Position numbers and translations under genes: made by a program. The notes beneath the pieces were generated by a model. The model was not told the origin of the DNA. It saw only the letters and a list, made by a program, of their open reading frames with translations, and did not search any database. This document shows, in pieces, positions 25,880-51,262 of a DNA stretch of 64,000 nucleotides; within the stretch, counting starts at the first letter, position 1; each line of letters opens with the position of its first letter. The DNA lies in the IMG/VR virus record IMGVR_UViG_3300049718_000055, positions 1-64,000 of that record; one strand, 5' to 3'. Source of the DNA: a virus.

Positions 25880-26175
25880 GCTCCCCTCAATTGCCGAACA
25901 GCCTCGATTTCGTCTTTTGTGAGGACCGCTTTACCGTTAAGCCTTACGAAGTCGTAGGTGCCCAACAGGTCCACCAGTTTCCAAAGCCTCTCGCTTGAGG
26001 GCGAAAGAACTCCCTGCTCCCATCGGCTGATCGTGCTTTTGTTGCAGCCGTGGAAACCCTGCACCAAATCTTCCATAGAAAGCTGCGACTTTATCCTAGC
26101 CCGCGTCAAAGCCGCACCATCAATGGTTAGCAGGTTGTTTGCGCTGTACTGTCGTGTCTTGTTTCCCATGCACAC
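25876..26175 (-). CDS. XRE-family HTH regulator
   Basis: LTRARIKSQLSMEDL...STISRWEQG...PS. Confidence 0.85.
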   Translation of the reverse strand: MCMGNKTRQYSANNLLTIDGAALTRARIKSQLSMEDLVQGFHGCNKSTISRWEQGVLSPSSERLWKLVDLLGTYDFVRLNGKAVLTKDEIEAVRQLRGA

Positions 26176-26272
26176 TATCGTTGCACAGTCGTTTTAAGAT
26201 TGTCAACCCCCCTGTTTTTTAGATAATCATTTTCAGTGGCAAACCGCTGCAAACATGAGAGATAATGCCTAC

Positions 26273-26521
26273 ATGAAGACGCAAACCGTAAAGAAGCCCA
26301 AAGCCGTTACCCTCAAGAAAGTCCAGAAGGCCCAACCTGTCAAACCGAAGTTGAGCAAGAAAGACCCCGACTACTATGCGAAGATCGGAGCCATCTCCGC
26401 GGCGAAACGGAAGCTGTCGAAAGAGTATTTTTCTTCTATGGCGGCCAAAAGCCACGGCGCCGGCTCTCGTCCAGACGGATACCACGGTGGCCGCAAGCCA
26501 AAGTCTACGGATTCCGAATAG
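26273..26521 (+). CDS. Small lysine-rich protein with KGG-like repeats
   Basis: DPDYYAKIG / SKEYFSSMA; leaderless start after GATAAT. Confidence 0.6.
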   Translation: MKTQTVKKPKAVTLKKVQKAQPVKPKLSKKDPDYYAKIGAISAAKRKLSKEYFSSMAAKSHGAGSRPDGYHGGRKPKSTDSE

Positions 26522-28837: not shown

Positions 28838-31800
28838 CTACTTCGGGGGTGGTTGGATCTTCTTCGTGCCGGACCATTCGTTTACCTTCGGGATCGTCCC
28901 AAGAGGCCATGCAATCCGCTTCGCCTCTTTTGCTGATTCCTTTTCCAGATTCTTCCCGAACTTCTTTACCGTGGGGTTCTTCAATTTGCTGGTGTCATCT
29001 GCGGCTTTGGGAACAGTCGAACCGGCCATGAAAATATCCTTGTAGATGCTTCCCACCAAACGATCCAATTCGTCGGTTGCCATGTACCCCATCATCTTAT
29101 ACAGCTTCTTCTCTTCTCCCTCTGCGGCCATCATGCCAATATCTGTCCACATCTTCATTCTGTCGTTCGCCATGCCGATGAAGAGGCTATCCAGACAGAT
29201 TTTAAGGGCTCCGGACCATGGATGCTTCTCTAAGTCCCTGTAATCTTCCAGTAAATTATCCCAACTGTCCCTCGTGTGAGATTGTCCCGTTGCTCCCTCA
29301 AATGCTTTCTGAGCCCCGTGCTTCACTCCCGCCTTCAGATTCATTAAGGCAAATCCAGCGGCCGGATAAAGCAAGAAAAACGGCAACAGTGGTCTGAAGT
29401 TGCGATGATGGAATACCTCATCAAAATACCATTCCTTGATCCCCGAATAACTCTTGATCTGGAATGACTGAAGGTTGTAAGCTGCGTGTGCTACGGCATG
29501 GAGATTCTTTTCCGCATCTCCAAGACCTTCAGACATACTCAGTTTTGCCATTCTCGGCATCTGTTCCGGCTGCTCTGTGAATGCAACTTTGTTGGCAAAC
29601 ACCCTTTCGGCCTTCCACTTCGATTCTTCGTCCCAGCGGTTGTTTGCCACGGCCTTATTGATCTCGTCGTCGCTCAATAGCATACGATCTTTCAATAAAC
29701 GCCTTGAAGTCTCTGCCCGCTTTCCCCCAGCTTTCAAATCGCTGAGAACGTCAAGGTCCATCCATGCCCAAGCAATCTCTCCAACGGTAGCCCGCTGCCA
29801 GTTGTAAACATCGCTAAATCCTGTTGCTTTTAGCATTTCCTTGGCTACACCAAAGTTCTTTCCTTCAATCAGCGCAGGATTCATTCTCGGCGTTACAACC
29901 CCGACATAAAACTTTTCACGCATTCTCTCCTTCGGATGACGAAACATCCTATAATTTCCGACAAACCACGGCTTGAGACCGAGTTGTCCGGCATGAACAT
30001 TGTGGAATGCAACCGAGATCGGAGACAGGCTCATCTTCGTGATGACCTCGAAAGGCTGCATGAACCGATACATTCTTCCAACCCTTGTGTTCCAGTCTTG
30101 ATACTCAAAATACAGCTTCAAGTTTTCTGTCAAATCTTTTCTCAATGCAGAACTAGGAACGTCGGCAATCAAACTGCCAACCTTGCCCATGTCGTGACCG
30201 AGCGTGGACTCTAACGCTACTGCGCTTCCAAGCTGGTCGAAATACTTATTCAATGCCCAAATATCTTTCTTATAGAACGGATGATTAACCGTCCTTTTCG
30301 TGGTTACATTCGGGTTTCTAGGACGCTTCAAGCGGCGCTCACGGTCTCTGCTTAACTCCCCAAGCCAACGATGCGCATCTCCCGTTCCTACTTTCAATCT
30401 CTGTCTCTCCTTTTCGAGATAGCGCAACTTTGCTACATCGTCGAGAGTTTTATCGTCGCAAACTTCCGAAAGAGTCCTTATCTCTCCTGTCTCCGAGTCC
30501 GTCAATTCCATGTCCCAGTCTGTTTCATGGGGCATATAATGCGGGTTGTTTGGAACATCATATATGCTGCCGTCTTCCCGATGTACACCTTCTTTAGTTG
30601 CCAACTCGTTCGCTTCATCCATCAACAGACGCAATTCCTCTGCGGCTTTGTTGATACGAGGATCGTTCGATGCTACACGCCCCTCTTTAACATCCCACAC
30701 TTCGCGTACATCGTCATGACCCGGCCTACGCAGCCACTCCTTAACCTTCCCTTCCACTGGACCGTCTGAATTCCATTCCAATTTGTTCTCTTTGAAAATA
30801 TCAATCAAACGCATCTGGAAGTTTCCAGAGATTCCCATTTGTTTCTGCTGATAGTCGTCAAGTTTGTCAAAAACCGCTCCGGTCTTTTCTAAGTACCCGC
30901 TCTTTCTCGATACGCCCAAAGCCCTCATCCTGAAGTTCATGCCAAGAGTACGCTTCTGATAGTTTGCATATTCCTTGTCAAACCAGCGCCTCACCTTGTC
31001 TTGCATACCGATTTTTCTAGCCGCATTGATAGCAGGAATCCTGATCTTTTCTTTGATTCTCTGACCGAAAGTAGGCTCTTCCGACTCTCCAAGCCTGCGC
31101 TCTTCAAGGCCGCTCGTGTCTCTGCCAAGCATCTTCTTTGCATGATAGAGAGGGCCAGACCACTCGCCCGTTTCGGGATCATAGGTAAAACCGTGACTCT
31201 GAAGTTCGCCCTTCATTGCGTAGCTTCCAGCTTCGGCAGGGTCAATGCCCTCTGGGGTTATACCGGCCACTTCTGAGGCGTGTGCAGCCCCAAGAGCGAT
31301 GGTTTCCTTTGGGATGTCTGGATTCTTCGCCGCGGACTCGGCTATGTCGTTGATTGCCTTTTCCGCTTTCACGTTCGTCGGAGGCGGAGTAAAGGCTCTT
31401 TCCTTGTCCTGGTACATATTGGTCCAGTCCGCCCCCTCCTGAGCCCCAGTCCTCAAGCCCTTGTTCATTGCCTCCGATGCCGGCGGAATCTGGATTGCAT
31501 CCCAACTGTCGATTCCTACCACTCTGCCGGCGTGACGCACTCCAAAGTCTGCGGCCTTGACCTCGATTTCGTTGCCGTTCGCAAAATTCAATGTGTCCTG
31601 CTCGGCCCGCGTCCTCTCCACGTCGCTGTAGTTCTCCATTGCCGTAGCAAGAGAGTCCTTTATGCCATGCACGGCCGCACGAATAGACCGCATCCTCGGA
31701 GCCACAAGTTCCTTCATAATCCTGACCTGCGGCGCCGCGTCGGTCCCAAGGAAAACTACATGGACATCGGACTTGGTTCCGTCTCTCCACGGCCTGCCAA

Positions 31801-34800
31801 GGGTCTGCTCTAACAGCACTCCAGAGTAAGGCGGTCCCAACACATACATCAATCTCGGCTTGTCACCTTTCGTGTCGTTCCAGTCGCTTCCGATACCTCC
31901 AGCCGGGATGCTCAGGTAGGCCATCGGAAGTTTCCCGTCTTGGAAGTCTTTTCGCACCTTTTCACGCCCGGTATCCGACTGGTTGACGCCGCTGTAGTTT
32001 CCAATCTTATCCCCGAATTCTGCCTGCAACGCATCGAAGACGTTCGGAAGTCTTGGAAGCAATCGGCTAAACTGGCCGTTCATGGCGTCATCCATCTGCT
32101 GAAATGCAGTTGGTTCACCGCTTCTCTCTTTCCTGAACAAGTCCTCATCTGTGGTCGGAGACGCGATGATTATGCTGTACCCCTTCTCTATGTCCCTCTT
32201 TGCCATTTCAATGACATTAGGAATCATTTCGCGCTCAAGAAACGCCTTCGTGAACTGCGCTTCGTATGCGGAAATACTTTTTGGAGATAGCCCCTCGGTA
32301 AGTTTTGTACGTGTCCGCGCTCTTTCCATCAGACCGGAAATCGTGTCAAGGCCGCGCTTCATGGCGCTTGTCATCGGCACAAATCCAAAGTGGACATTGA
32401 ACCCCTCGTAGGAGAGAGTCTGCGATACCATCTGGCCGCGTTGGATCAACTGCTGGCGCAACTTTGCCATCTTTACAGGATCGAGTTCGGCTACCAGCGT
32501 CTTGTCTTTGTAGTAAGTCTTGAAATTGCTCTTCAGGAATTCCTCGTATCCGCCCTTCTTCCAGAGTCCTAACTTCTCAAGGTATCCAACCTCCAGCGGA
32601 GTGTGGAATGGAGTTGCGCTCATGTACACGCCCTTCTTGGCGTTTTGCATGATCGCCATGAGCATTTGACCTTGGCTCATGCCCTTCTTATTCTCTGCTT
32701 TCTTGAACCAGTTCCTTGCCTCTCCTGCCTCATCCGCAATCACCATATCCCACTTGATGTTCTGGTACACGGGGTTTCTTAGAGCCGTCTGATAGCTCAC
32801 TCCATACGTTCCGTTCTCGATTCCAAATTTTGGAGTATCGAGACTGAGGTCAACGCCAAATGCTTTTGCCGGTTCATCTGCGGTTTTCTCCAATAATGGA
32901 CGGTTGCGGGTTATGTATAGGGTCAACGGCTTATCGCCGGCCTCTCGGTCTCGTCCAAACTCGCTGATAATCCCCATCGCTGTCCAGGTCTTGCCCGTTC
33001 CTGTTCCGCTGGCAACCAACGCTCCGTCGCCGCGCTGCAATGCCGACATAACGATCTGTACCGTAGGTGCCTGACCGGGATGCTTGTCTTCGTCGAGAAT
33101 CCTTGCCGTCCGCTCAGTAATAGCCCAGATCGGAAGAGGAGACTCTGTAGACATCCCCGCTTTGCCAGTCCGCTTCTTCCACGATTCTTCCGTTTCAGGG
33201 GCATCGTCCGCCGTCTTGCCGACAACCGGATCGTTCGTCTCCCTCAACGGAAGCATTCTGATCGGCTCAACGCGGTCTACACCGAATCCTCGTATGGCGG
33301 GACTTCCTCCGGCTCCGTCATGTCGTGGCATCCCCAACTCGGTTTTGCCAGAAACTCTGTCAACTGTTGGAGGTCTTTGAATTCCAGCAGCCTCATGAGT
33401 TCCTTCTCGTACTCGGTTGGCTCTCTCATTTTTTCTTTCCTCCATCACCTTATGCGCTAACTCAGGATCGGTCTTCGGAGCACGTTCTTCCGTTCCGTAT
33501 TCCGCTGCGATTTTGTTTTCAAGGTCGTCAATCTGCATCTGCAAAAACTGCTTGTCGAGAATCTTGTGGCGCGGCAATGCGGAAAGTTCTCTCTTCAATT
33601 GGTTTCGACGTGCTCCCATCTCTCCGCGAGTTTCAGGCTGTGATTCTTGGAACATGACGGTCGGCGGAACATTCCCTTTAGTGTTGAACTTTACACCCCA
33701 ATTGCCATCGTCCATCTCTATCAACTGCGCTGCATCAGCCTGAATTCCCGACGATCCATACCTCGTCTCTCGGCCTATAGGAGTGAAAGCCATAACAGCC
33801 TTCGCGTAATCGTCAAACGCAAAAACTACGGTTTTACCTGGGATGTTCTTTACATCCTTCGCGCCTTCGTGAGTACGGGCCTCAATCACCCCTTTCACAT
33901 CACGGCGGACAAAGATTGCCCCTGTATCTTTTCTTGCTTGCTCAATCGGATCTACAACATCCGAAGGATTCTTTATCCTCTTCTTGGCTTTTTCAGCCGC
34001 TTCGGTTTCGGTCAGAAACTCATCTGCCGGGTCCATGCCCGTAACATGGTAGATGCGGTCTAGTGTCTCCTTGGCATCGTCCGTCACTCTAAACGGACGA
34101 AGCGGGTCTTCACGCCACTTCTTGTAGACCTGCTGGAATATCTCCTTCAACTTCGCAAGAATCTTCCCGGTCTCAGCAGAGAACAACTTTGGATTCTCGT
34201 CGCGGTTATATTTCTCAATACCCCCAATAGCTCTTTCGCTGAATTCTTCAAGAACTTTCCCAACTAAATCTGCCCTGCTTTTTCCATCCCAAAGCGCCTT
34301 CGTCGGTCCCGTGATCGTATTCAAGGCGCGAAGGTCTTCATCGCTCAAAAAAGGCAAGAATGCGTGCCATAGTTCATGCGTGACAGTCGTCTTGTCAGCC
34401 TTCTCGTGGAGATACACACGCGATGTTTTACCGATTTCGTCCCACTCGGTTCGTCCCCTGCCTCTCTCGAAGTATTTGTCGCGCTCTATGCTGCTGAGAA
34501 TCTTTTTCCTCTCAAGAACCCACTTCAGAGCGTCTTTGCGTTCAACCCCCTCCGGTTTCTCAAACTCCCAAATTGCCTCTGAAACCAGATGGAAGTTCTT
34601 CATGTGCCATTTTGCGTTTTCCTTCGTTGATTCATCAGCGTAGACAAACGTCTTCAATCCTTCGTAATCAACATAGCCCTGCTCGCGCACTTGATTGAGC
34701 AACACATCCTTGGCAACTTCTTTTTCGCTACGAGTCTTCGGCGGCGGCTTGATTCCCTTTTCCGTTTCGGCCTTCGGTTCGGCTGGTGGCTCGATTCCAA

Positions 34801-37800
34801 TTTTTGGAATCTCTTCTGCTTTTACCTCTGGCTGCGGTTCTGGCTTCTTCTCCTCTTTAGGAGCCTCATAACGGTTTTGCAGAGCCGCTTCAAATTCCTC
34901 CTGCGTTACCGGCTCAAACTTCTTCCCCTGTGATTTTGCGATCTTCTCCAACTCTGGACGAAAAGCAACATTGAAATAGTCCGCGGCGGTGTGGAGTTCT
35001 TGCCCTTCTACTTTCGGAGCAAACAACATTTCCATCCCCGGCTCACCAACAATCATGTCATTCAAGGCGCCATTGAGACGTGTCGTTTTTGAATCAAGAA
35101 GAGCGACATAGACAGCTTGCGTAACGCGGCTCGGCTCGTCTGGTTTACCTAAGAAGAAATCTCCGTTCCCATAGACGTGATTCCATGCCGGTATCGGCTT
35201 GTCGCCTTCTCTCCTGAATCTTCGAGTCTTTGCCGCCGCCGAAACAGCCTCAGTAACTTTCTCTGTGAGACCTGGATAATAAGCTCTCAGTGCTGTTACC
35301 GATCCAATTGCCTTTGTCAGAGAGGATTCTGCATCAGTTCCGCTTATCAGCCGCACAGACTCTACATCTAGAATATGAGATCCGACAAGAGCGAGAACAA
35401 ACTTATCCTTCCCCGCCTTGTTGAGAGTGGCATCCTCCCCAACGCTATCGAACCATGCCGCATTTTCGGTAGGTGGAATATGGAAATACTCTCTAGCTTT
35501 TTTGGCAAACCAATACGGATCATCGTCAATCGCCGCTCTTACGGTCGAGATGTCGTTGCCAGCTATTTTACTGGCAATCTCACTTAGGATTCCATCCTTC
35601 CCATCCAAACGCTCTTGATGGTCGGCATCGGAAAGTAGTTTCCCGTTGCTTAACGCCTCTACGTTTTCTCCTACCTGGGCGGAACTGCGGTCGTTGAATA
35701 ATCTTCCAATTCTAGCCGCTTCACCCACGGTGTCTATCGGCTTATCCAAGACCCGTACAGGGATGTAGGTTCTTCCATCATCGGGAACGTGTTTAATACC
35801 TACCTTAGCGGAGAACTTTGCTACGGCATCATTGAAAACAATCATTTCCGCATCGCGGGCCTTCGTATCCCCCATCCGAGAAATGTTCTCAAGCCACTTC
35901 TTGAGCCGTAGAAGTCTTGTGTTCCCTCCAATTACACGGCCATACGAATCGAGAATCGCTGGACCATTCTCCGGCCCATATCCTGTATCAAAATAAAGCC
36001 GATGCGTGAAGTTTTCAGGCTGAGCTTCCCCTAAGACATCTTTCGTCCGATTCTCATCGAAATCTCTGTACTGCATTTCCTTTGGAACATACTCTTCGTT
36101 GTCCTCCAGATTGTTTCCATTCCACCTGTGAGAGACAATAGGAGCTTCAATGTCCATAAGAGCGTACTGCCCCGGGTGAGATTCCTTCCCTTTGTTGACC
36201 TGGGTAGGATCGCCACGACGGGCTATAAGAATTCCCCCTCCACTTGGATAATCGCCCTTACCTGCGGCTTTCCCTACCGCATCCGCGGTTTGCTGCACTG
36301 CACGATGAAGCGTGTCCGTTGCCTCTTTTACGGCTTGTGCCCTCTTGTCAATATCCTGTTCCGTAGTGCCGGCGTTGACATCAAACGCATCACCTATCGA
36401 CCGAACAACCTCAGCAACAGCGGCCTCCTGCCGACCCTCTGCCGCCTGAACGTACTCCTTTGCCTCTTCCGCGTTACGAGGTTCCGGCGCGGGACTTCCC
36501 GCCCTGTCATTGACCCCTTGAGTCGCTTGCCGATTGTTCTCAACCCACACGGATTTAGATGCGGCCTCCGCTAACTGCTCCGGCTTATTGAAAACGATGC
36601 TGTCTCCCTTGCCAACAATCCTGCGCACTACATCGCTTGGGTTTAAGGGATTGAGGTCGTGCTGTGCGCCTCCAGAGGAAAGATACAAGTCTCCGTTTTT
36701 CCTCTCGCTTACGGTCCAAGTGCGCCCCTTCCAGTTAGCGTCTTGAACTGTGTTCCCCGGCTGCAACTGAGCGATCCTCGCCAGAGGATCTTCGCTGCCA
36801 GAGAGTTTCTGACGAACCAATGCTTCGACCGGAACACCTTCCCTGTCGGCTACCTCTTGAAGTCTTCCGGCCGCATATTCAGGATTGCTTGCCCAACCAG
36901 CGTCTCCGACCTGGGTGAGAAGATTTATAAGTGACTGCTCGGTGTCTGGCGCCGGACCCTGCTCTCCCTCTTGCGGATTTGTGCGCTCTGCGCGGCTCTG
37001 CCGGCGCCGGTTCGAGTAATCCCTCACACGCGCCAGTTTCTCTTCAGGAATAGGCTCTGCCCCTGTCGCCAGCAACTCTTGGTCAATCGAAGCAACCGCC
37101 CGCTGTGCGTCCCTGTCCCGCTCTTCCCGAGACAACCTTTCTTCTCTTGTCATCTCCCCGTAGCGGATACGTCCATAAGCCGCTAAATTCATTGCCAGAT
37201 TAGAGTAAATTCCATCCTTCTTCAAAGGAATTTTTTGTCCATCTGGACCATGAAGAAGCCCGTCGGCCCCAAGTTCCCAAACATTGCCTCTGCGGTCAAC
37301 AATCCTGTCTCCAGACCGCGTGAGCATATTCAGGTTTTCGTTGGTCAGATCCCATGCAGACGCTTCAGCCTGGGAGAGAGTCGCATCTTTCTTCTCGTAG
37401 TCCACTCCAGACTTTTCAAAGGCTTCATCGAATTCGTGGTTGAATTGCTCTCTTCCATTTGCGAACGGACCTTCTACGCCCTCACCACGAGCAGCGTCAT
37501 GCTCGTCTGGTAGACGCTCATCACCGCCAATCCCGGTCATGTCTTGAGCGTGGCGAGAATCAATTTCCTTCGCAATCAACTGCTCTGTGACATTTCCTAG
37601 ATGATCTTCCTTTGCGGCATCTTCGGCTGTTGTGGTCCTGAGAGCTTGAATCTTGGCAAGCGTTCTCGCCGACTCCTCATCCTCAACACTCGCGGCCGTC
37701 TCTGCTGATCCGAAGTACCCTGTGGAATTTAGATACTGCTTCTCCCCTGTTTCCTCGTCTTGGACATAAACCCCAAACCCGCTGCCGACTGGCTCGACGC

Positions 37801-39682
37801 CGATATACGCTTTCTGCTCAAGACGGGTTACGGGGCCATAAACCTCTTCGCCATCAACAACCGTCTTCGGAATTACTTCCGTGGCTTGTGGGCGCGGAGT
37901 CTCTTTCTCACGCTCCTCTCTAGCCTTTACGTTCCGCTGCCTTGCGGCCTCGTTGTCGGAAATGATTTTCTCGCGCTTTACTGTCTCCGCCTTTTTGTTC
38001 TCCTCTACGGCTTTGCGGATTGACTCCTGAACCGCGCTCTCATGCTGCCTTGCAACAAGCTCTTCCCGGTCTGCATGGATTTTCCTTACAGCCCGTTCCG
38101 CCGCAATCGGATTCCAGGATTCTCTTAATGCTGTGCTGTGACGATATTGAATCCGTTTCAGGTTTCTTTCGTCTGCCTTCCCTATGAGATCATGCGCTCT
38201 CTGGAAATAAGGGTCATCGTTCCATACCTTGTCGAGTACAATCGACTGCTCTTGCGGAGTTTTTAATTGCCCAAATTTCTTCCCGTCAAATAGTTCCTTA
38301 GAGGCATCATCAAGATGGCTCGTGACTACCGCCTTGGCAGCATCTTCTTTAATTCCATGCGCCAGCATTGCAAGATTGCCAAGACCGGAAAGGCCAAATT
38401 CAAGCGTTTCTGAAATATCCCCCTTCTTTGCCGCTTCCATTGTCTGCTGATAGTCCTGCCCTACTCCAGCGGCCATCTGAATCTTGAAGCCATAATCAGC
38501 AAGAGTGGAGACGGTTCTGACTGTTCTCGCAACAGCAATAGGAGCTTCCCATCCCATTTGTTCTGGAAGGCTTGCGCCCCGTGAGGCCACGATAATAGCC
38601 ACCATTGCAGGATTGGTTAGAGTTTCCCCAAGCCGCATCGAGGCATTTGAAATTCCGGCATTACCTTTTGCTACTATTCCTTTCCACTTACTTGTCTCTC
38701 CAACCCTGTCGGCCCATGTATTGTTTTTTGCCCTGATAAGGTCTGTGTCCCCTCCTTCAATACCTACGGATTTTGATGCGAGAGAGACTAGGTTGGGATG
38801 CTCCGCGTGTGGCTCTGGAATGCCCAGCAGTCTAGCGGTATTCGCTATTCCTCCCTTGATTTCATCCCACCAATTTCCGCCGGCAACTTCGAGCCTCTTC
38901 GTTGCTCTGGCAAGATCGGTAAGTCCTGCGTATTCCTGCTTTCGCTCCTCATTCCACCCTTGCTCACTGGCATAGGCATACCCTTCAGCATAGTGCTTCG
39001 CATACTCCTCTGGGGTAGAAAATGAGTGATACGCTATCTCCGCCGGGTCCGCAATTGTACGAGAGGTGTCAAAGCGATGATTTTTAAGGTCTGATTCTTC
39101 TTTTGCCTTGTGATCTTGCGCCCTCTTCAATGCGCTCTGGTATACGCCTCCCTGCTCATCTGGCGTGAGGGTTTTCTTCTCTGCATCTTCCCACTGCAAA
39201 GACATAGCATATTCTTCACCCCTTGCGGGATTTAGATGATGCAGTTGCACACCATCCCTGTATCGGCTGACTCTTTCAATTGCCCTGTCTTTGCTTTGCC
39301 CTTCGTTTATAGTGCGGGCATAGATTCTCTGCTCGGGTGTCATCCACGAATCGTCATACGTTCCGCTCTGCATACTGCGGGCATTTTCCGATTCGACTGA
39401 CGAAGGCCCAATTGTCGCATGGTGAGGGCCGGCGCCTGTCGCTTGGAGAATCTTTTCCTGTGGGGTCTGAACAGCGGTTGCACCGTGCTTTTCAGCCAGT
39501 GCCGCGAAGTCTGTCTTTGGGGTCTTACTTACATTTTGAATAACAGGTTGGGCAGCTTGAGACTTCGACGAACCTCCAAATTGCTTGGCGAGACTCTGGT
39601 AATCGACGTTTGGGCCTTCCTTCTTTTGCCCAACTACGCCACCAAATTGTCCTGCGAGTTTTTCATAATCAGTCGGCATCAC
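28838..39682 (-). CDS. Giant polyvalent internal virion protein (DarB-like): ParB-like domain, zincin motif, Strawberry-notch-type SF2 helicase
   Basis: GPAIL...IGGNTR; TTVTHELWH; GTGTGKT, DEAG, SATPF, AGGIG, EQTLGRPWR. Confidence 0.8.
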   Translation of the reverse strand: MMPTDYEKLAGQFGGVVGQKKEGPNVDYQSLAKQFGGSSKSQAAQPVIQNVSKTPKTDFAALAEKHGATAVQTPQEKILQATGAGPHHATIGPSSVESENARSMQSGTYDDSWMTPEQRIYARTINEGQSKDRAIERVSRYRDGVQLHHLNPARGEEYAMSLQWEDAEKKTLTPDEQGGVYQSALKRAQDHKAKEESDLKNHRFDTSRTIADPAEIAYHSFSTPEEYAKHYAEGYAYASEQGWNEERKQEYAGLTDLARATKRLEVAGGNWWDEIKGGIANTARLLGIPEPHAEHPNLVSLASKSVGIEGGDTDLIRAKNNTWADRVGETSKWKGIVAKGNAGISNASMRLGETLTNPAMVAIIVASRGASLPEQMGWEAPIAVARTVRTVSTLADYGFKIQMAAGVGQDYQQTMEAAKKGDISETLEFGLSGLGNLAMLAHGIKEDAAKAVVTSHLDDASKELFDGKKFGQLKTPQEQSIVLDKVWNDDPYFQRAHDLIGKADERNLKRIQYRHSTALRESWNPIAAERAVRKIHADREELVARQHESAVQESIRKAVEENKKAETVKREKIISDNEAARQRNVKAREEREKETPRPQATEVIPKTVVDGEEVYGPVTRLEQKAYIGVEPVGSGFGVYVQDEETGEKQYLNSTGYFGSAETAASVEDEESARTLAKIQALRTTTAEDAAKEDHLGNVTEQLIAKEIDSRHAQDMTGIGGDERLPDEHDAARGEGVEGPFANGREQFNHEFDEAFEKSGVDYEKKDATLSQAEASAWDLTNENLNMLTRSGDRIVDRRGNVWELGADGLLHGPDGQKIPLKKDGIYSNLAMNLAAYGRIRYGEMTREERLSREERDRDAQRAVASIDQELLATGAEPIPEEKLARVRDYSNRRRQSRAERTNPQEGEQGPAPDTEQSLINLLTQVGDAGWASNPEYAAGRLQEVADREGVPVEALVRQKLSGSEDPLARIAQLQPGNTVQDANWKGRTWTVSERKNGDLYLSSGGAQHDLNPLNPSDVVRRIVGKGDSIVFNKPEQLAEAASKSVWVENNRQATQGVNDRAGSPAPEPRNAEEAKEYVQAAEGRQEAAVAEVVRSIGDAFDVNAGTTEQDIDKRAQAVKEATDTLHRAVQQTADAVGKAAGKGDYPSGGGILIARRGDPTQVNKGKESHPGQYALMDIEAPIVSHRWNGNNLEDNEEYVPKEMQYRDFDENRTKDVLGEAQPENFTHRLYFDTGYGPENGPAILDSYGRVIGGNTRLLRLKKWLENISRMGDTKARDAEMIVFNDAVAKFSAKVGIKHVPDDGRTYIPVRVLDKPIDTVGEAARIGRLFNDRSSAQVGENVEALSNGKLLSDADHQERLDGKDGILSEIASKIAGNDISTVRAAIDDDPYWFAKKAREYFHIPPTENAAWFDSVGEDATLNKAGKDKFVLALVGSHILDVESVRLISGTDAESSLTKAIGSVTALRAYYPGLTEKVTEAVSAAAKTRRFRREGDKPIPAWNHVYGNGDFFLGKPDEPSRVTQAVYVALLDSKTTRLNGALNDMIVGEPGMEMLFAPKVEGQELHTAADYFNVAFRPELEKIAKSQGKKFEPVTQEEFEAALQNRYEAPKEEKKPEPQPEVKAEEIPKIGIEPPAEPKAETEKGIKPPPKTRSEKEVAKDVLLNQVREQGYVDYEGLKTFVYADESTKENAKWHMKNFHLVSEAIWEFEKPEGVERKDALKWVLERKKILSSIERDKYFERGRGRTEWDEIGKTSRVYLHEKADKTTVTHELWHAFLPFLSDEDLRALNTITGPTKALWDGKSRADLVGKVLEEFSERAIGGIEKYNRDENPKLFSAETGKILAKLKEIFQQVYKKWREDPLRPFRVTDDAKETLDRIYHVTGMDPADEFLTETEAAEKAKKRIKNPSDVVDPIEQARKDTGAIFVRRDVKGVIEARTHEGAKDVKNIPGKTVVFAFDDYAKAVMAFTPIGRETRYGSSGIQADAAQLIEMDDGNWGVKFNTKGNVPPTVMFQESQPETRGEMGARRNQLKRELSALPRHKILDKQFLQMQIDDLENKIAAEYGTEERAPKTDPELAHKVMEERKNERANRVREGTHEAAGIQRPPTVDRVSGKTELGMPRHDGAGGSPAIRGFGVDRVEPIRMLPLRETNDPVVGKTADDAPETEESWKKRTGKAGMSTESPLPIWAITERTARILDEDKHPGQAPTVQIVMSALQRGDGALVASGTGTGKTWTAMGIISEFGRDREAGDKPLTLYITRNRPLLEKTADEPAKAFGVDLSLDTPKFGIENGTYGVSYQTALRNPVYQNIKWDMVIADEAGEARNWFKKAENKKGMSQGQMLMAIMQNAKKGVYMSATPFHTPLEVGYLEKLGLWKKGGYEEFLKSNFKTYYKDKTLVAELDPVKMAKLRQQLIQRGQMVSQTLSYEGFNVHFGFVPMTSAMKRGLDTISGLMERARTRTKLTEGLSPKSISAYEAQFTKAFLEREMIPNVIEMAKRDIEKGYSIIIASPTTDEDLFRKERSGEPTAFQQMDDAMNGQFSRLLPRLPNVFDALQAEFGDKIGNYSGVNQSDTGREKVRKDFQDGKLPMAYLSIPAGGIGSDWNDTKGDKPRLMYVLGPPYSGVLLEQTLGRPWRDGTKSDVHVVFLGTDAAPQVRIMKELVAPRMRSIRAAVHGIKDSLATAMENYSDVERTRAEQDTLNFANGNEIEVKAADFGVRHAGRVVGIDSWDAIQIPPASEAMNKGLRTGAQEGADWTNMYQDKERAFTPPPTNVKAEKAINDIAESAAKNPDIPKETIALGAAHASEVAGITPEGIDPAEAGSYAMKGELQSHGFTYDPETGEWSGPLYHAKKMLGRDTSGLEERRLGESEEPTFGQRIKEKIRIPAINAARKIGMQDKVRRWFDKEYANYQKRTLGMNFRMRALGVSRKSGYLEKTGAVFDKLDDYQQKQMGISGNFQMRLIDIFKENKLEWNSDGPVEGKVKEWLRRPGHDDVREVWDVKEGRVASNDPRINKAAEELRLLMDEANELATKEGVHREDGSIYDVPNNPHYMPHETDWDMELTDSETGEIRTLSEVCDDKTLDDVAKLRYLEKERQRLKVGTGDAHRWLGELSRDRERRLKRPRNPNVTTKRTVNHPFYKKDIWALNKYFDQLGSAVALESTLGHDMGKVGSLIADVPSSALRKDLTENLKLYFEYQDWNTRVGRMYRFMQPFEVITKMSLSPISVAFHNVHAGQLGLKPWFVGNYRMFRHPKERMREKFYVGVVTPRMNPALIEGKNFGVAKEMLKATGFSDVYNWQRATVGEIAWAWMDLDVLSDLKAGGKRAETSRRLLKDRMLLSDDEINKAVANNRWDEESKWKAERVFANKVAFTEQPEQMPRMAKLSMSEGLGDAEKNLHAVAHAAYNLQSFQIKSYSGIKEWYFDEVFHHRNFRPLLPFFLLYPAAGFALMNLKAGVKHGAQKAFEGATGQSHTRDSWDNLLEDYRDLEKHPWSGALKICLDSLFIGMANDRMKMWTDIGMMAAEGEEKKLYKMMGYMATDELDRLVGSIYKDIFMAGSTVPKAADDTSKLKNPTVKKFGKNLEKESAKEAKRIAWPLGTIPKVNEWSGTKKIQPPPK

Positions 39683-46728: not shown

Positions 46729-46812
46729 TGGAGCGGGGGACGGGATTTGAACCCGCGTGTCTCTCGACGGCAGCTTGGAAGGCTGCTGACCTACCAGTTG
46801 GTCATCCCCCGC
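46729..46812 (-). tRNA. tRNA-Gly(TCC), long variable arm
   Basis: GCAGC-CTTCCAA-GCTGC; CCA encoded. Confidence 0.9.
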
Positions 46813-46817
46813 AAACT

Positions 46818-46891
46818 TGGTGCTCCCCGCAGAAATCGAATCCGCATTGGCCGATAATCGGTCGGCTTTCCTACCATTGGAAGAGAGGAGC
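46818..46891 (-). tRNA. tRNA-Ile(GAT), atypical loop
   Basis: GCCGA-CCGATTA-TCGGC; CCA. Confidence 0.8.
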
Positions 46892-47055: not shown

Positions 47056-47133
47056 TGGTACTCCCGGTTGGACTCGAACCAACATCAATCCACTTACGGA
47101 CACTCGCTTCGGAGGCGAGACCGATACGGGAGC
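47056..47133 (-). tRNA. tRNA-Arg(CCG), no canonical D-arm
   Basis: CTCGC-CTCCGAA-GCGAG; normal T-arm and acceptor stem. Confidence 0.8.
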
Positions 47134-47138
47134 ATAAC

Positions 47139-47215
47139 TGGGGCCGCTGGCCGGAATCGAACCGGCGTCATCCAACTACTCTTGCCGGTTTAGGAAACCG
47201 GAGAGATACAGCGGC
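47139..47215 (-). tRNA. tRNA-Arg(CCT), no canonical D-arm
   Basis: CCGGT-TTCCTAA-ACCGG. Confidence 0.8.
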
Positions 47216-47219
47216 AAAC

Positions 47220-47296
47220 TGGCGCTCCCGGCAGGAGTCGAACCCGCGTCATCCGTCTACGGCCTCCTGTTTAGAAGACAGTGCCGATACGGGAGC
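47220..47296 (-). tRNA. tRNA-Arg(TCT), no canonical D-arm
   Basis: CTGT-CTTCTAA-ACAG. Confidence 0.8.
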
Positions 47297-47298
47297 AT

Positions 47299-47384
47299 TG
47301 GTGGAGCCGGTGGGACTCGAACCCACATTGGGTTACCCCGCTGATTAAAAGTCAGGTCTCTGCATCCAATTCGAGTACGACTCC
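47299..47384 (-). tRNA. tRNA-Lys(TTT), long variable arm
   Basis: CTGA-CTTTTAA-TCAG; V-arm GGGTAACCC. Confidence 0.88.
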
Positions 47385-47390
47385 GAAACT

Positions 47391-47465
47391 TGGTGGGTCG
47401 CCGGGGAATCGAACCCCGCTCTTTCGATTAAGAGTCGAGTGCATCGCCGACAATGCTTGCAACCC
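47391..47465 (-). tRNA. tRNA-Lys(CTT)
   Basis: TCGA-CTCTTAA-TCGA. Confidence 0.9.
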
Positions 47466-47468
47466 ACA

Positions 47469-47562
47469 TGGTAGGGGATGAAGGTGTCGAACCTTCCCGT
47501 TGCGCTAATCTGGCGCTCTCCAGAGTTTATAAGACTCCGCCGCACGGCCGATGCTATCCCCC
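47469..47562 (-). tRNA. tRNA with TAT anticodon (Ile), long variable arm
   Basis: GGAGT-CTTATAA-ACTCT; 94 nt. Confidence 0.8.
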
Positions 47563-47568
47563 AAAACT

Positions 47569-47640
47569 TGGTGCCGCGCCTGAAAATCGAATTCAGCAAA
47601 CAGGGTTATGAATCCTGCGTTCTCTCCAGAGATGCGCGGC
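47569..47640 (-). tRNA. tRNA-Met/Ile2(CAT), short D-arm
   Basis: CAGGA-TTCATAA-CCCTG. Confidence 0.75.
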
Positions 47641-47729: not shown

Positions 47730-47756
47730 AAAAAACCCGCTCCTGAGAGCGGGCCT
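47730..47756 (-). terminator. Attenuator terminator 3
   Basis: AGGCCCGCTC-TCAG-GAGCGGGTTTTTT. Confidence 0.85.
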
Positions 47757-47780: not shown

Positions 47781-47852
47781 CTAAAACACGACTCCCCAAA
47801 TGACCCGCTTCCCGGTCATTCTGGTTATCACGTGTTTGGTCCTGATCTGCAT
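47781..47852 (-). CDS. Leader peptide 3, MQIRTKHVITRMTGKRVIWGVVF
   Basis: Lies between promoter and terminator; codons match the 12 downstream tRNAs. Confidence 0.8.
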   Translation of the reverse strand: MQIRTKHVITRMTGKRVIWGVVF

Positions 47853-47905: not shown

Positions 47906-49090
47906 TCAGTCCTTGTAAGGATCAAATTCACGGGCAGATGCCATAGCCACTCCGACCGGGGTCAACACGTGAAGAACTTTGATCGAATCTCCACACGCCG
48001 CAAGAACTCCGTCTAGCCGTTTGTAGCAGTCTGGAGATTCGTCTAACCCGGCGCCACGCAGTTCAATTCCGGCCTTCCTTACCCATCCATCCATCATCTC
48101 CTGAGTTACTCTTCCAGGGCGCTTGCACTCGCCTGTCTTGCGGTCGAAAGTCCCCTTCGCCTCCATGCGACCCATTGCACGGCCAGCGCCGTGAACGGTT
48201 GAGTAAAGGCTGTACTTGGCATCCTCGTTCTCCATGCCCTCCAAGATGACGGACTTCTCGCCCATCGTTCCTCCAACGAATCCCTTCTGTCCAGGGAACG
48301 CCGGAGTGGCTCCCTTGCGAACAACCCACAGCATCTCACCACCATGCTCTTCCCGCCATGCGAAGTTGTGATGGTTGTGAACCTCTTCAATAGCCTTAGC
48401 TCCAAGAATCTTAATCACGCGGTCGCAGACCCAGTTCCTTCCTGCATAAGCGTACTCGCCGGCAAGAGACATAGCCTGTAGATATTCGCTGCCTAGTGCG
48501 CTGTCTACCGACAAGACACATGGCTCCACATCCATTCCGTCTTTTGCTCCTGCTGCTTTCAAAAACCACGTTGCAATCTTATGCCCGAGGCCGCGAGAAC
48601 CGAAATGAACACCCACCCAAACGCGGTCTTCTTCGTCTGTAAAAAGATCTACATAATGGTTTCCAGAACCCAAAGTCCCAAGTTGCTGATGAGCCATTTC
48701 CTTGAGCGGGGAGGTCATTGAAAGACTCCAGGCATCATGCTCGAAAACCTGATCGTCTACACGCTCGTCGTCATTCTTTCTCCCAACCCCAAAACTGACT
48801 ATATTCCATACGTCATCCATTATCGGCTTGATGCTGCCACGCAACATCCAGCCTTCCATGTCGGTCAACACGGCCTTGTTTCCACAGCCGATGTCGTATC
48901 CCACTCCGGTTGGGCTGATGGAATTTCTATAAGCCACAACACCGCCAATGGGCACACCGTACCCAAGGTGGTTATCTGGCATCAATGCCACTTTGTCCGC
49001 GGTTTTCGCACAGGTCCGAATCTGGTTGAGAGTCTTTTCTTCAGCTTCCCCAAATACCGGTATAGTTCCATCTACTAACTGCATCCCCAT
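47906..49090 (-). CDS. rtcB: RNA 3'-phosphate/5'-OH ligase RtcB
   Basis: MPDNHLGYGVPIGG; VGYDIGCG; GTLGSGNHY; HFGSRG; HNHHN; RKGAT; HGAGR; DESP..YK. Confidence 0.96.
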   Translation of the reverse strand: MGMQLVDGTIPVFGEAEEKTLNQIRTCAKTADKVALMPDNHLGYGVPIGGVVAYRNSISPTGVGYDIGCGNKAVLTDMEGWMLRGSIKPIMDDVWNIVSFGVGRKNDDERVDDQVFEHDAWSLSMTSPLKEMAHQQLGTLGSGNHYVDLFTDEEDRVWVGVHFGSRGLGHKIATWFLKAAGAKDGMDVEPCVLSVDSALGSEYLQAMSLAGEYAYAGRNWVCDRVIKILGAKAIEEVHNHHNFAWREEHGGEMLWVVRKGATPAFPGQKGFVGGTMGEKSVILEGMENEDAKYSLYSTVHGAGRAMGRMEAKGTFDRKTGECKRPGRVTQEMMDGWVRKAGIELRGAGLDESPDCYKRLDGVLAACGDSIKVLHVLTPVGVAMASAREFDPYKD

Positions 49091-49105
49091 ACCCTCCTTT
49101 TTATT

Positions 49106-49180
49106 TGGTGAGCGCGGAGGGAATCGAACCCCCATCGTTGCGTTCGTAGCGCAGCACTCTATCCGTTGAGCTACGCGCCC
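49106..49180 (-). tRNA. tRNA-Arg(ACG)
   Basis: TGCG-CTACGAA-CGCA. Confidence 0.93.
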
Positions 49181-49842: not shown

Positions 49843-50391
49843 TCAGTTAAACGCATACCTCTTATCACCTTCGGAGTCCGTGAATAAAAACGGACCCCAC
49901 TCATTTACCTCGGCGCCGAGAGACCTCAACAAAAATCGCGGCGTGTGAATCGACTGCGGCAGCGGCCGGCGAAGCAACTTCATTCCAGCTTCCTCCGGCG
50001 TCCGGTCGGCCTTGCGGTGATTATCTTTGGCGCAACATGAAACCAAGTTGCTCCACGATGGCGATCCTCCTCTTGACTTTGGAATTATGTGGTCAAGAGT
50101 TAGTTCGCTAGTCTTGAACCTTTCTCCGCAATACATACACCTTTCTCCGTCACGAAGAAAAATGTTCTTGCGGCTTACAACTTGAAGCCTAATTGGGACG
50201 TGGCGATAAGCGCGAAGCCTGATTACCGATGGAGCATAGATTCCAAGTCCGCGATGGATAAGTACATCGGTAGGAACCTCAACCAGAGCAACACCTTTCG
50301 TAATAAGAGTCAGAGCCTTCTTAACTGAAACTATGCGAAGCGGCTCATACGATGCATTGAGAAGAAGTGTTGCGCTTTTTCCTATTGTCAT
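49843..50391 (-). CDS. HNH endonuclease
   Basis: LLLNASYEPL; SRKNIFLRDGERCMYCG; TLDHIIPKSRGG..SWSNLV.CC...N..K..RTPEEAGM. Confidence 0.93.
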   Translation of the reverse strand: MTIGKSATLLLNASYEPLRIVSVKKALTLITKGVALVEVPTDVLIHRGLGIYAPSVIRLRAYRHVPIRLQVVSRKNIFLRDGERCMYCGERFKTSELTLDHIIPKSRGGSPSWSNLVSCCAKDNHRKADRTPEEAGMKLLRRPLPQSIHTPRFLLRSLGAEVNEWGPFLFTDSEGDKRYAFN

Positions 50392-51163
50392 AGTCACCAC
50401 GCTCCCAACGTTCTTTCAGTAAAGCAGACATCTTCGCCTTAGTTTCTTCCTTGTGCTTCATACCTTTGTTTCCAGGTACTCTGCCTTTCCTGATTGCCGA
50501 CTGTTTAGCCCGTGTTTCTTCGGAAGCCTTTTTACCTGTCAGAGAGCGAGAAATCTTTGCTTTACTCTCTTCTGAAAGTTTCCTTCGTCTGTTCGCCGCA
50601 GAAATCTTCTCACTAAATCCCTGCGGTTTAGGTCTCCCCTTCAAAGCAGCAGATCGTTTTGCTTTTTCTTCCTCCGACATTGGGCCTAATTTCCGGCCCC
50701 TAAATGATGCCGACATACGCGCTTTGGTTTCTTCCGAACGCTTTGAACCAGTCCTAGATTTAATCATCTTGGCTATCGCCTCTGCTGTGTGTCTCAATCC
50801 CTTATGCACAGCAGATACTTTCGCTTTCATTTCGGCTGTTCTAACCGCTCCTGATCCTCCCTCGCCCCCATCTGTTCTATTTCTCAAGCATCCAGTTCCA
50901 AGGTTAATTCTCCCATGGAATTTTATTAGCTGCTTCTCCATGAAAAACGCTTCGTCCTCTGACAAATCTTTGGCAATAATTACAATCATCGATTTATCTT
51001 TTGGAGTACGTATCGCTTCAATAGGATTTTTCTTATAGGCTCTTAACCCGTGTCCTTTCCCTATGTAATAAGGAGAACCCGCTGGGCCGTGTTCGGAGGC
51101 AAAAGTCCTCACGTATTGGTATACGTAAAACCCAGAGATTACAGGTCTCCTATAGTTACTCAC
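50345..51163 (-). CDS. GIY-YIG endonuclease with NUMOD3 repeats
   Basis: FYVYQY...YYIGKG...R; LRNRTDGGEG; repeated SEETKAKMS. Start refined to GTG 51163. Confidence 0.88.
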   Translation of the reverse strand: MSNYRRPVISGFYVYQYVRTFASEHGPAGSPYYIGKGHGLRAYKKNPIEAIRTPKDKSMIVIIAKDLSEDEAFFMEKQLIKFHGRINLGTGCLRNRTDGGEGGSGAVRTAEMKAKVSAVHKGLRHTAEAIAKMIKSRTGSKRSEETKARMSASFRGRKLGPMSEEEKAKRSAALKGRPKPQGFSEKISAANRRRKLSEESKAKISRSLTGKKASEETRAKQSAIRKGRVPGNKGMKHKEETKAKMSALLKERWERGDYDNRKKRNTSSQCIV

Positions 51164-51187
51164 TGTCTTACTCTCTTTCCTTAAAAG

Positions 51188-51262
51188 TGGAGCCGGGTAG
51201 CGAAATCGAATCGCTGTCTGTGGGATACGAATCCACTGCTCTGCCATCTGAGCTAACCCGAC
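51188..51262 (-). tRNA. tRNA-Thr(CGT)
   Basis: GTGGA-TTCGTAT-CCCAC. Confidence 0.88.

Follow-up and report, generated by a model that had tools for sequence, protein, structure and literature searches.

The locus and its three probable tRNA-Arg genes

The DNA under consideration, referred to here as the window, is the whole stretch of 64,000 nucleotides (nt) that forms positions 1 to 64,000 of the IMG/VR virus record IMGVR_UViG_3300049718_000055, a record of 88.6 kb that is estimated to be 91% complete. A dense tRNA array occupies the minus strand of the window from 46.7 to 52.9 kb, and within this array, between the genes for tRNA-Val and tRNA-Lys(UUU), are three tandem genes that run head-to-tail with only 4-5 nt between them. 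These genes, termed A, B and C, very probably encode working arginine tRNAs in which, to judge from comparison of their sequences with those of relatives, the D segment has been transposed to the far side of the anticodon arm, and genes of this layout are described below as rewired. The proteins encoded in the window are mostly novel and of phage type, among them a DnaB-like helicase, a ParB-like protein and virion structural proteins, and matches to the window in public sequencing runs come from peat and permafrost metagenomes. Across the array ARAGORN reports 24 genes with default settings and 30 when relaxed, one of the relaxed calls lying on the plus strand where it overlaps a tRNA-Met gene.

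Element A, the putative rewired tRNA-Arg(UCU), occupies 47220..47296 (-), with a body of 74 nt (47296-47223) followed by an encoded CCA, an anticodon at 47275-47273 and G as the discriminator. Element B, the tRNA-Arg(CCU) candidate, lies at 47139..47215 (-) and has the same arrangement of 74 nt (47215-47142) plus encoded CCA, with its anticodon at 47194-47192 and C as the discriminator, while element C, the tRNA-Arg(CCG) candidate at 47056..47133 (-), is made up of 75 nt (47133-47059) plus encoded CCA, with an anticodon at 47112-47110 and a discriminator A. In all three the acceptor 5' and 3' strands are found in their usual order inside one 77-nt gene. The acceptor stem has 7 pairs in each case (including G1.U72 in C) and ends in the encoded 3' CCA, the T stem has 5 pairs (one of them G.U in A) and closes the loops UUCGACU, UUCGAUU and UUCGAGU, respectively, and the anticodon arm consists of a stem of 5 base pairs (bp) and a 7-nt loop that contains U33, A37 and A38.

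It is between these regular domains that the genes are unusual. The gap from the acceptor stem to the anticodon stem is only 7 nt long (UAUCGGC, UAUCUCU and UAUCGGU), base for base as it had been read in the initial annotation of this DNA, and there is no D-arm hairpin within it. The linker of element A, at 47283..47289 (-), is composed of UAU, corresponding to U8, A9 and a further U, and then CGGC, which represents the 5' strand of a helix that encloses the anticodon arm. In element B the linker (47202..47208 (-)) has UAU followed by the helix strand CUCU, and in element C (47120..47126 (-)) UAU is followed by CGGU. Downstream of the anticodon arm there is a 2-nt bulge, then a 4-nt strand that is complementary to the linker and ends in G, and finally a connector of 12-13 nt, with the consensus UA-R-NN-GGAU-(N)-A-N in the three genes, which leads into the T arm. 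For element A the 3' helix strand and connector cover 47248..47263 (-) and read GCCG followed by UAGACGGAUGAC, where the connector can be mapped on to A14, G15, G18, G19 and A20, with its last C as position 48. The equivalent region of element B, at 47167..47182 (-), reads AGAG and then UAGUUGGAUGAC, and that of element C, at 47084..47100 (-), reads UCCG and then UAAGUGGAUUGAU, in which A15 is matched with U48. A U.U pair adjoins the anticodon stem in the enclosing helix of element C.

The genes are largely invisible to the standard tools. ARAGORN, whether in default, relaxed or mitochondrial mode, makes no call across the 240-nt stretch that holds A, B and C, and all three go unreported by Rfam cmscan at the gathering threshold. 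When the speed filters are bypassed the general tRNA model RF00005 gives them 30.8, 35.0 and 35.1 bits against a gathering threshold of 29 bits, with the neighbouring tRNAs scoring 40-66 bits compared to 31-35 for these three. A covariance model built from homologues had been suggested as a check at the outset. Such a model, R1, constructed from 35 rewired relatives, scores A at 75.2, B at 79.4 and C at 81.2 bits, gives every ordinary tRNA of the window no more than 28 bits and contains the covariation that was anticipated. The other Rfam matches over A-C fall below threshold and were treated as clan or chance similarity; they include tRNA-Sec (28.1 bits), tmRNA and permuted tmRNA, together with Plastid-ycf2 on the opposite strand. 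When the region was compared by BLAST with deposited phage genomes, the only matches were short ones to ordinary tRNAs, with no close relative among them. A solitary rewired tRNA-Arg(UCU) is also present in a cultured bacterium, Devosia riboflavina, on a contig (L003) and in the provirus predicted from it (L039). There, ARAGORN reports the rewired gene as a 90-nt tRNA-Arg, which means that finders can also mislabel members of this family.

Relatives, enclosing helix and connector

Relatives were sought by pattern scans of public collections in which short motifs were fixed and the stems and anticodon were left free; UAUC, UA and GGAU were thus partly forced by the search patterns, and freer scans and the model search show variants of them. 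The matches that bear stems comprise 69 distinct sequences, and 68 of these have an arginine anticodon (UCU in 31, CCU in 16, CCG in 8, ACG in 7 and UCG in 6), the exception being one UAU gene. Pattern matches that lack the acceptor and T stems have scattered triplets in the anticodon place. The 68 Arg-type relatives are spread over viral, metagenome and a few bacterial contigs. Element C was itself recovered by the first pattern scan, element A has a near-identical orthologue at L177:2107-2180, and the orthologue of element B at L196:1051-1124 differs by one T-loop base. The family extends to cultured phages. For instance, the Salmonella phage Felix O1 contains an unannotated rewired tRNA-Arg(UCU) at 25951-26029 of NC_005282 (equivalent to L137:1501-1579), which scores 55 bits with R1, has a 7-nt bulge and GGAG in its connector, and overlaps at its 3' end the annotated start of the HNH endonuclease ORF45 (coding sequence 26003-26395). 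The Felix O1 genome paper noted that a tRNA for AGA was expected and not found (PMC3185647).

Several of the relatives have features of their own. The gene at L073:1018-1094 combines the rewired layout with a CAU anticodon and with GGCU in the connector, without A20, from which it follows that the layout also exists with a Met or Ile2-type anticodon. On six metagenome contigs (L058, L088, L091, L096, L120 and L128; 35 kb and 0.5-1.9 Mb where a size is listed) a rewired and an ordinary tRNA-Arg(ACG) are neighbours, some 15-20 nt apart. These contigs have large arrays with many copies of tRNA-Glu, Ile and Asp, along with some extra rewired-like copies that have abnormal anticodon loops, such as L058:2278-2355 and L058:2818-2895, and seven open reading frames (ORFs) near the ACG pairs on the 0.5-1.9 Mb contigs yielded only TnpB-like and thymidylate synthase matches.

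The same layout recurs with a second amino acid. A rewired tRNA-Ile family is found in more than 100 viral contigs (L220-L299 and further loci), and among the matches listed its 74 distinct sequences have the anticodon UAU in 68 cases and GAU in 6. Shared with the Arg family are the UAU junction, the C-rich strand, the anticodon arm, the bulge, the complementary strand ending in G, the UA-R-NN-GG connector and the covariation of positions 15 and 48. The Ile-type genes differ from the Arg-type genes in having U20 in place of A20, A73 in all, a 4-5-nt bulge and isoleucine anticodons, and their helix, CCC/GGG, is fixed in the sample as the search pattern demanded.

Fundamental to the proposed fold is the enclosing helix, which in the alignment of 35 sequences is represented by the pairs 11:37, 12:36 and 13:35. 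The pair 12:36 is GC in 14 sequences, UA in 8, AU in 7 and CG in 6 and is never unpaired, and 13:35 is GC in 19, AU in 7, CG in 6 and GU/UG in 2, with a single sequence unpaired. The two variable pairs use all four Watson-Crick types and the third is an invariant C:G, while C.A, U:A or G.A usually makes up the fourth pair, the one that adjoins the anticodon stem. Standard pairs fill 93.9% of the structure cells across these sequences, compared to 35-44% when the partners are slid; RNAalifold, unprompted, returns the same 3-bp helix; and the covariation is also found in the 69-sequence union. The initial annotation had described covarying pairings of CGGC with GCCG, CTCT with AGAG and CGG with CCG. 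The covariation stands, and what is conserved is three Watson-Crick pairs and one usually non-Watson-Crick pair rather than four, with the four of element B being there by chance. A further pairing put forward at that time, of ATC in the linker with GAT in the connector, was rejected; it is present in the single-sequence minimum-free-energy fold of A, but it competes with the invariant C:G of the helix, and linkers with UAC, UAG or UAA occur without any compensating change in GGAU.

The long hairpin is built of 10 stacked layers, namely a U.U, 3 Watson-Crick pairs, 1 non-Watson-Crick pair and the 5 pairs of the anticodon stem, and a cloverleaf reaches the same 10 with the 4 pairs of its D stem, position 26 and the 5 pairs of its anticodon stem. 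With the hairpin equal to the canonical stack, the layout can be read as a block of positions 10-21 that has moved from before positions 22-43 to after them, where it would replace most of the variable loop. This mapping of positions, and the L-shape that would follow from it, are what we infer from the alignment.

The connector, in turn, has the properties of a D-loop. U8-A9 is invariant after the acceptor stem and the connector starts with an invariant A that is preceded by U, as a U8:A14 pair would need, and A14, G18 and G19 show little or no variation and face an unchanged T loop. Positions 15 and 48, the third and last bases of the connector, are A:U in 51, G:G in 13 and G:C in 4 of the 68 Arg-type sequences, and A is never found with anything except U (Fisher p = 2e-16, a value inflated by kinship among the sequences). 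The Ile-type family, among the matches listed, has A:U in 43 and G:C in 26 (p = 6e-17, with the same inflation). On these counts the covariation is in the pattern of the 15:48 Levitt pair, which the two bases would be predicted to form.

Position 20 appears to follow the amino acid. Of 34 Arg-type genes from a scan in which GGAT was not forced, 31 have an A next to the first GG on its 3' side, and one of the three exceptions, counted as G, reads GGGA, so that there too an A follows a GG. In the Ile-type genes, among the matches listed, the base after GG is U in 73 of 74, and all 74 have A73. The bacterial identity sets are A20, C35 and U36/G36 for arginine and U20 with A73 for isoleucine; A20 is the main determinant for the bacterial arginyl-tRNA synthetase (ArgRS), and the arginine discriminator set is A/G/U73 (PMC9976931). 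The anticodons UCU, CCU and CCG satisfy C35 together with U36 or G36. In elements A, B and C the GG is likewise followed by an A, which may be seated in the position-20 pocket. The discriminators of the 68 Arg-type sequences are U in 26, G in 23, A in 17 and C in 2.

Taken as a whole, the comparison supports the connector as a probable displaced D-loop that lies, with one strand of the D-stem, 3' of the anticodon arm. This is the arrangement that had been proposed from the three genes at the beginning, and the covarying helix, the retention of A14, G18 and G19 and the 15:48 covariation are all in its favour. The accompanying suggestion that the connector provides the A20 identity element for ArgRS gains indirect backing from the difference between Arg-type and Ile-type genes at this position.

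Function and alternative explanations

What would such genes provide for the phage? The only other tRNA-Arg in the record is an ordinary ACG gene in the same array, a cloverleaf at 49106..49180 (-) that is called by ARAGORN, scores 59.8 bits with RF00005 and has the D-loop AACGGAUA. Together with this gene, A, B and C cover all six arginine codons, and AGA, AGG and CGG make up 55% of the arginine codons in the long ORFs of the window. Related phages conserve the order Lys-Lys-[UCU]-[CCU]-[CCG]-Val within the array, and the contents of the slots are informative. In L177 all three are occupied by rewired Arg genes. In L196 the slot of A is taken by an ordinary cloverleaf tRNA-Arg(UCU), with rewired genes for CCU and CCG behind it, and in L156 it is the tRNA-Arg(CCG) that is ordinary, alongside rewired genes with the anticodons UCU and CCU. 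These swaps in L196 and L156 indicate that ordinary and rewired genes of the same anticodon are interchangeable at a slot.

With regard to expression, a peat metatranscriptome run from another study contains a 259-nt contig that is identical over 47184-47442, and the adjacent gene for an RtcB RNA ligase (47906-49135 (-), Pfam E = 2.5e-69), which is located inside the tRNA array, is uncovered. The read data for the window consist entirely of contigs, in which the uncovered parts are uninformative and the starts, ends and levels of RNA are unreadable, and the 259-nt contig gives a weak hint that this DNA is transcribed. Directly upstream of the tRNA block, which starts with tRNA-Trp, there is a 23-codon ORF, MQIRTKHVITRMTGKRVIWGVVF, at 47781-47852 (-), followed by an intrinsic terminator at 47733-47756 (-). 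The three arginine codons of the MQIRTKHVITRMTGKRVIWGVVF ORF are AGG, AGA and CGG, those that match the rewired tRNAs, and both the peptide and its arginine codons are conserved ahead of this block in L177, L196 and L156.

As working tRNAs the three gene products would decode AGA(/AGG), AGG and CGG, respectively. The chain in each would run from the acceptor 5' strand through U8-A9, the equivalent of D-stem positions 22-25 with position 26, and the anticodon arm, and then on through the 2-nt bulge, the equivalent of D-stem positions 10-13, the D-loop (A14, R15, G18, G19 and A20) and the nucleotide of position 48, before the T arm, the 3' strand of the acceptor stem, the discriminator and finally CCA. 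Such an order makes the secondary structure a three-way junction and not a cloverleaf. The connector would dock on the unchanged T loop via G18 and G19, and the 15:48 Levitt pair and the U8:A14 pair would close, thereby rebuilding the L-shape. Host ArgRS would be able to read A20 with C35 and U36/G36, and RNase P, EF-Tu and the ribosome would meet normal acceptor/T and anticodon domains.

A number of observations weigh against this interpretation. The proposed fold is the minimum-free-energy fold of element B, but its energy exceeds the single-sequence minimum by 6.0 kcal/mol in A and by 2.4 kcal/mol in C, with the helix pairs at 0.01-0.09 ensemble probability; as a test of the fold, single-sequence thermodynamics is uninformative. 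In element A positions 27 and 43 are mismatched (A27.G43), compared to G:C in its orthologue, and the discriminator C of element B lies outside the published bacterial arginine set. The invariance of UAUC, UA and GGAU is overstated because of the search patterns that partly forced these motifs, the p-values for 15:48 suffer from kinship, and the metatranscriptome support is a single low-depth contig for which carry-over of DNA is possible.

The absence of any hairpin between the acceptor and anticodon stems invites comparison with the D-armless tRNAs of mitochondria, functional examples of which are known (PMC7609411). On that explanation the anticodon helix is simply lengthened, the connector is a flexible spacer that makes no D-loop contacts, and the tRNA functions through its flexibility. 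We hold this to be improbable, as a spacer does not account for a connector so constrained that A14, G18 and G19 are kept, position 20 tracks the amino acid and R15 covaries with the last base; nor does it fit with a T loop that is fully canonical, in contrast to most truncated mitochondrial tRNAs, or with a 10-layer helix that has the length of the canonical D-stem and anticodon-stem stack. Alternatively, a small hairpin of the variable region might be drawn, in a class-II-like tRNA that has lost its D arm. In element A a CCG-UAGA-CGG hairpin can be drawn, and the Rfam tRNA-Sec model aligns in this way, albeit at its 28.1 bits against a cut-off of 47, but the three pairs of the hairpin show no two-sided changes in the 35 relatives and are unpaired in 8, 14 and 4 of them, and element B would require another register. 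This possibility is barely credible.

The genes could also be tRNA-like without being tRNAs, and act as bait for a host anticodon nuclease or some other defence aimed at tRNAs, or as sensors linked to the upstream leader and terminator, in either case without delivery to the ribosome. The unusual fold, the RtcB gene within the array and the conserved leader ORF, with its AGG, AGA and CGG codons and its terminator ahead of the block, are all in keeping with such decoys or regulators. It is harder to see why three decoys should have anticodons that exactly complement the lone ordinary tRNA-Arg for six codons, or why an ordinary tRNA-Arg of the same anticodon should take the same slot in relatives. 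Moreover, the positions of synthetase identity, U33, A37 and CCA are kept across many phages, and A20 would be needless in a decoy, so that this explanation is very improbable. The chance that the genes are pseudogenes in decay, remnants of tRNA duplication within an array that evolves rapidly, is close to nil. Some rewired-like copies do have abnormal anticodon loops, as in the two L058 genes mentioned above, but in A, B and C the stems, loops and CCA are intact, and their orthologues in related phages are joined by relatives in dozens of unrelated contigs that display compensatory changes. The initial annotation had likewise argued against decay, and synteny and the conserved relatives strengthen that argument.

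If A, B and C are arginine tRNAs with a transposed D segment, then why should phages favour the fold? The RtcB ligase gene in the array makes escape from a tRNA-directed defence a reasonable idea, and one can envisage the transposed core as a second natural route to the L-shape that bacterial machinery accepts and that is kept, RtcB included, for the evasion of such host defences. The fold would remove the canonical face of the D arm and variable loop that a host tRNA-directed nuclease or defence system reads, the decoding of arginine (and isoleucine) codons by the phage would survive an attack on the host tRNAs, and the RtcB of the array would be part of the counter-measure. As a complete account this is speculative and, in our estimation, unlikely.

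Neighbouring genes and comparison with known systems

The array contains other genes of interest besides the ligase gene. An HNH endonuclease gene (49843-50400 (-)) and a gene for a NUMOD3-motif protein (50345-51247 (-)), probably of a homing endonuclease, are located within it. In a tRNA-Ile(UAU) of 94 nt at 47469-47562 (-) the anticodon arm is followed by an additional hairpin, whose loop, CAGAUUA, is similar to an anticodon loop with GAU. A tRNA-Ile(GAU)-like gene at 46818-46891 (-) is a normal cloverleaf except for the anticodon loop CCGAUUA (with C33 and U37), and is detected by ARAGORN only at relaxed thresholds and not reported by Rfam at the gathering threshold. The tRNA(CAU) at 47569-47640 (-) is missed by ARAGORN with default settings; its D arm is minimal (a 3-bp stem and 4-nt loop), the junction leading into its anticodon stem is 4 nt long, and positions 31 and 39 are mismatched (A31.C39). 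Finally, the 84-nt tRNA-Gly(UCC) at 46729-46812 (-) has an enlarged variable region; permissive Rfam keeps a tRNA-Sec match to it at 42.8 bits (cut-off 47), and RF00005 without filters gives 52.1 bits. Elsewhere in the window there is an ORF of 3614 codons at 28838-39682 (-).

To our knowledge, the segment order of the cloverleaf has been regarded as universal, apart from a small number of truncated tRNAs of mitochondria. If the proposed structure is correct then the L-shape does not need cloverleaf connectivity, and nature has provided a test of how ArgRS and the isoleucine enzyme, IleRS, read position 20 outside its usual chain context. It would also mean that phage tRNA repertoires are systematically under-annotated, as in the AGA case of Felix O1. 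The rewired class could be a scaffold for the engineering of orthogonal tRNAs, and the existence of members in cultured phages makes the question directly testable.

Literature searches returned no paper that describes the layout. A catalogue of structured viral RNAs includes a candidate, DNAVirus_2961, that sometimes overlaps tRNA-Arg calls (PMC10690425) and may overlap the present family, and a review of non-canonical tRNAs mentions neither phages nor such a fold (PMC7609411). What is new from the window is the occurrence of three tandem isoacceptors that are all rewired, the exchange of slots with ordinary genes, the 15:48 covariation and the contrast between A20 and U20.

In comparison to a canonical class I tRNA-Arg (RF00005), the rewired genes have the same 7-bp acceptor stem, 5-bp T stem with a UUCRANY loop, 5-bp anticodon stem, 7-nt anticodon loop with U33 and A37, encoded CCA and C35. 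They also have the same D-loop motif, A-R-N-(N)-G-G-A-U, as is apparent when AACGGAUA of the ordinary gene is set beside UA-R-NN-GGAU. The difference is that positions 10-21, the 5' strand of the D-stem and the D-loop, sit after the anticodon arm, with the result that the rewired genes have no D hairpin and no 4-5-nt variable loop, and form a three-way in place of a four-way junction. Segments encoded in a non-standard order are found in the permuted tRNA genes of Cyanidioschyzon merolae and the split tRNAs of Nanoarchaeum. In those systems processing restores a normal cloverleaf, whereas the 5' and 3' ends of the phage genes are in their normal order and it is the mature RNA itself that would be transposed internally.

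Like the phage genes, the mitochondrial D-armless tRNAs have no D hairpin in the gap from the acceptor stem to the anticodon stem, but their connectors are short, their T arms are often reduced and contact between D-loop and T-loop is absent, and they depend on flexibility and on dedicated mitochondrial factors. The phage genes, on the other hand, keep the full D-loop motif, a canonical T loop and the canonical helix length, and their products must use the bacterial machinery. Lastly, the allo-tRNAs with 8/4 or 9/3 acceptor/T branches (PMC5389517) are similarly non-canonical, are found in bacteria, phages and metagenomes, and are missed by standard finders. They retain the cloverleaf order with altered stem lengths, whereas the phage genes retain canonical lengths in an altered order.
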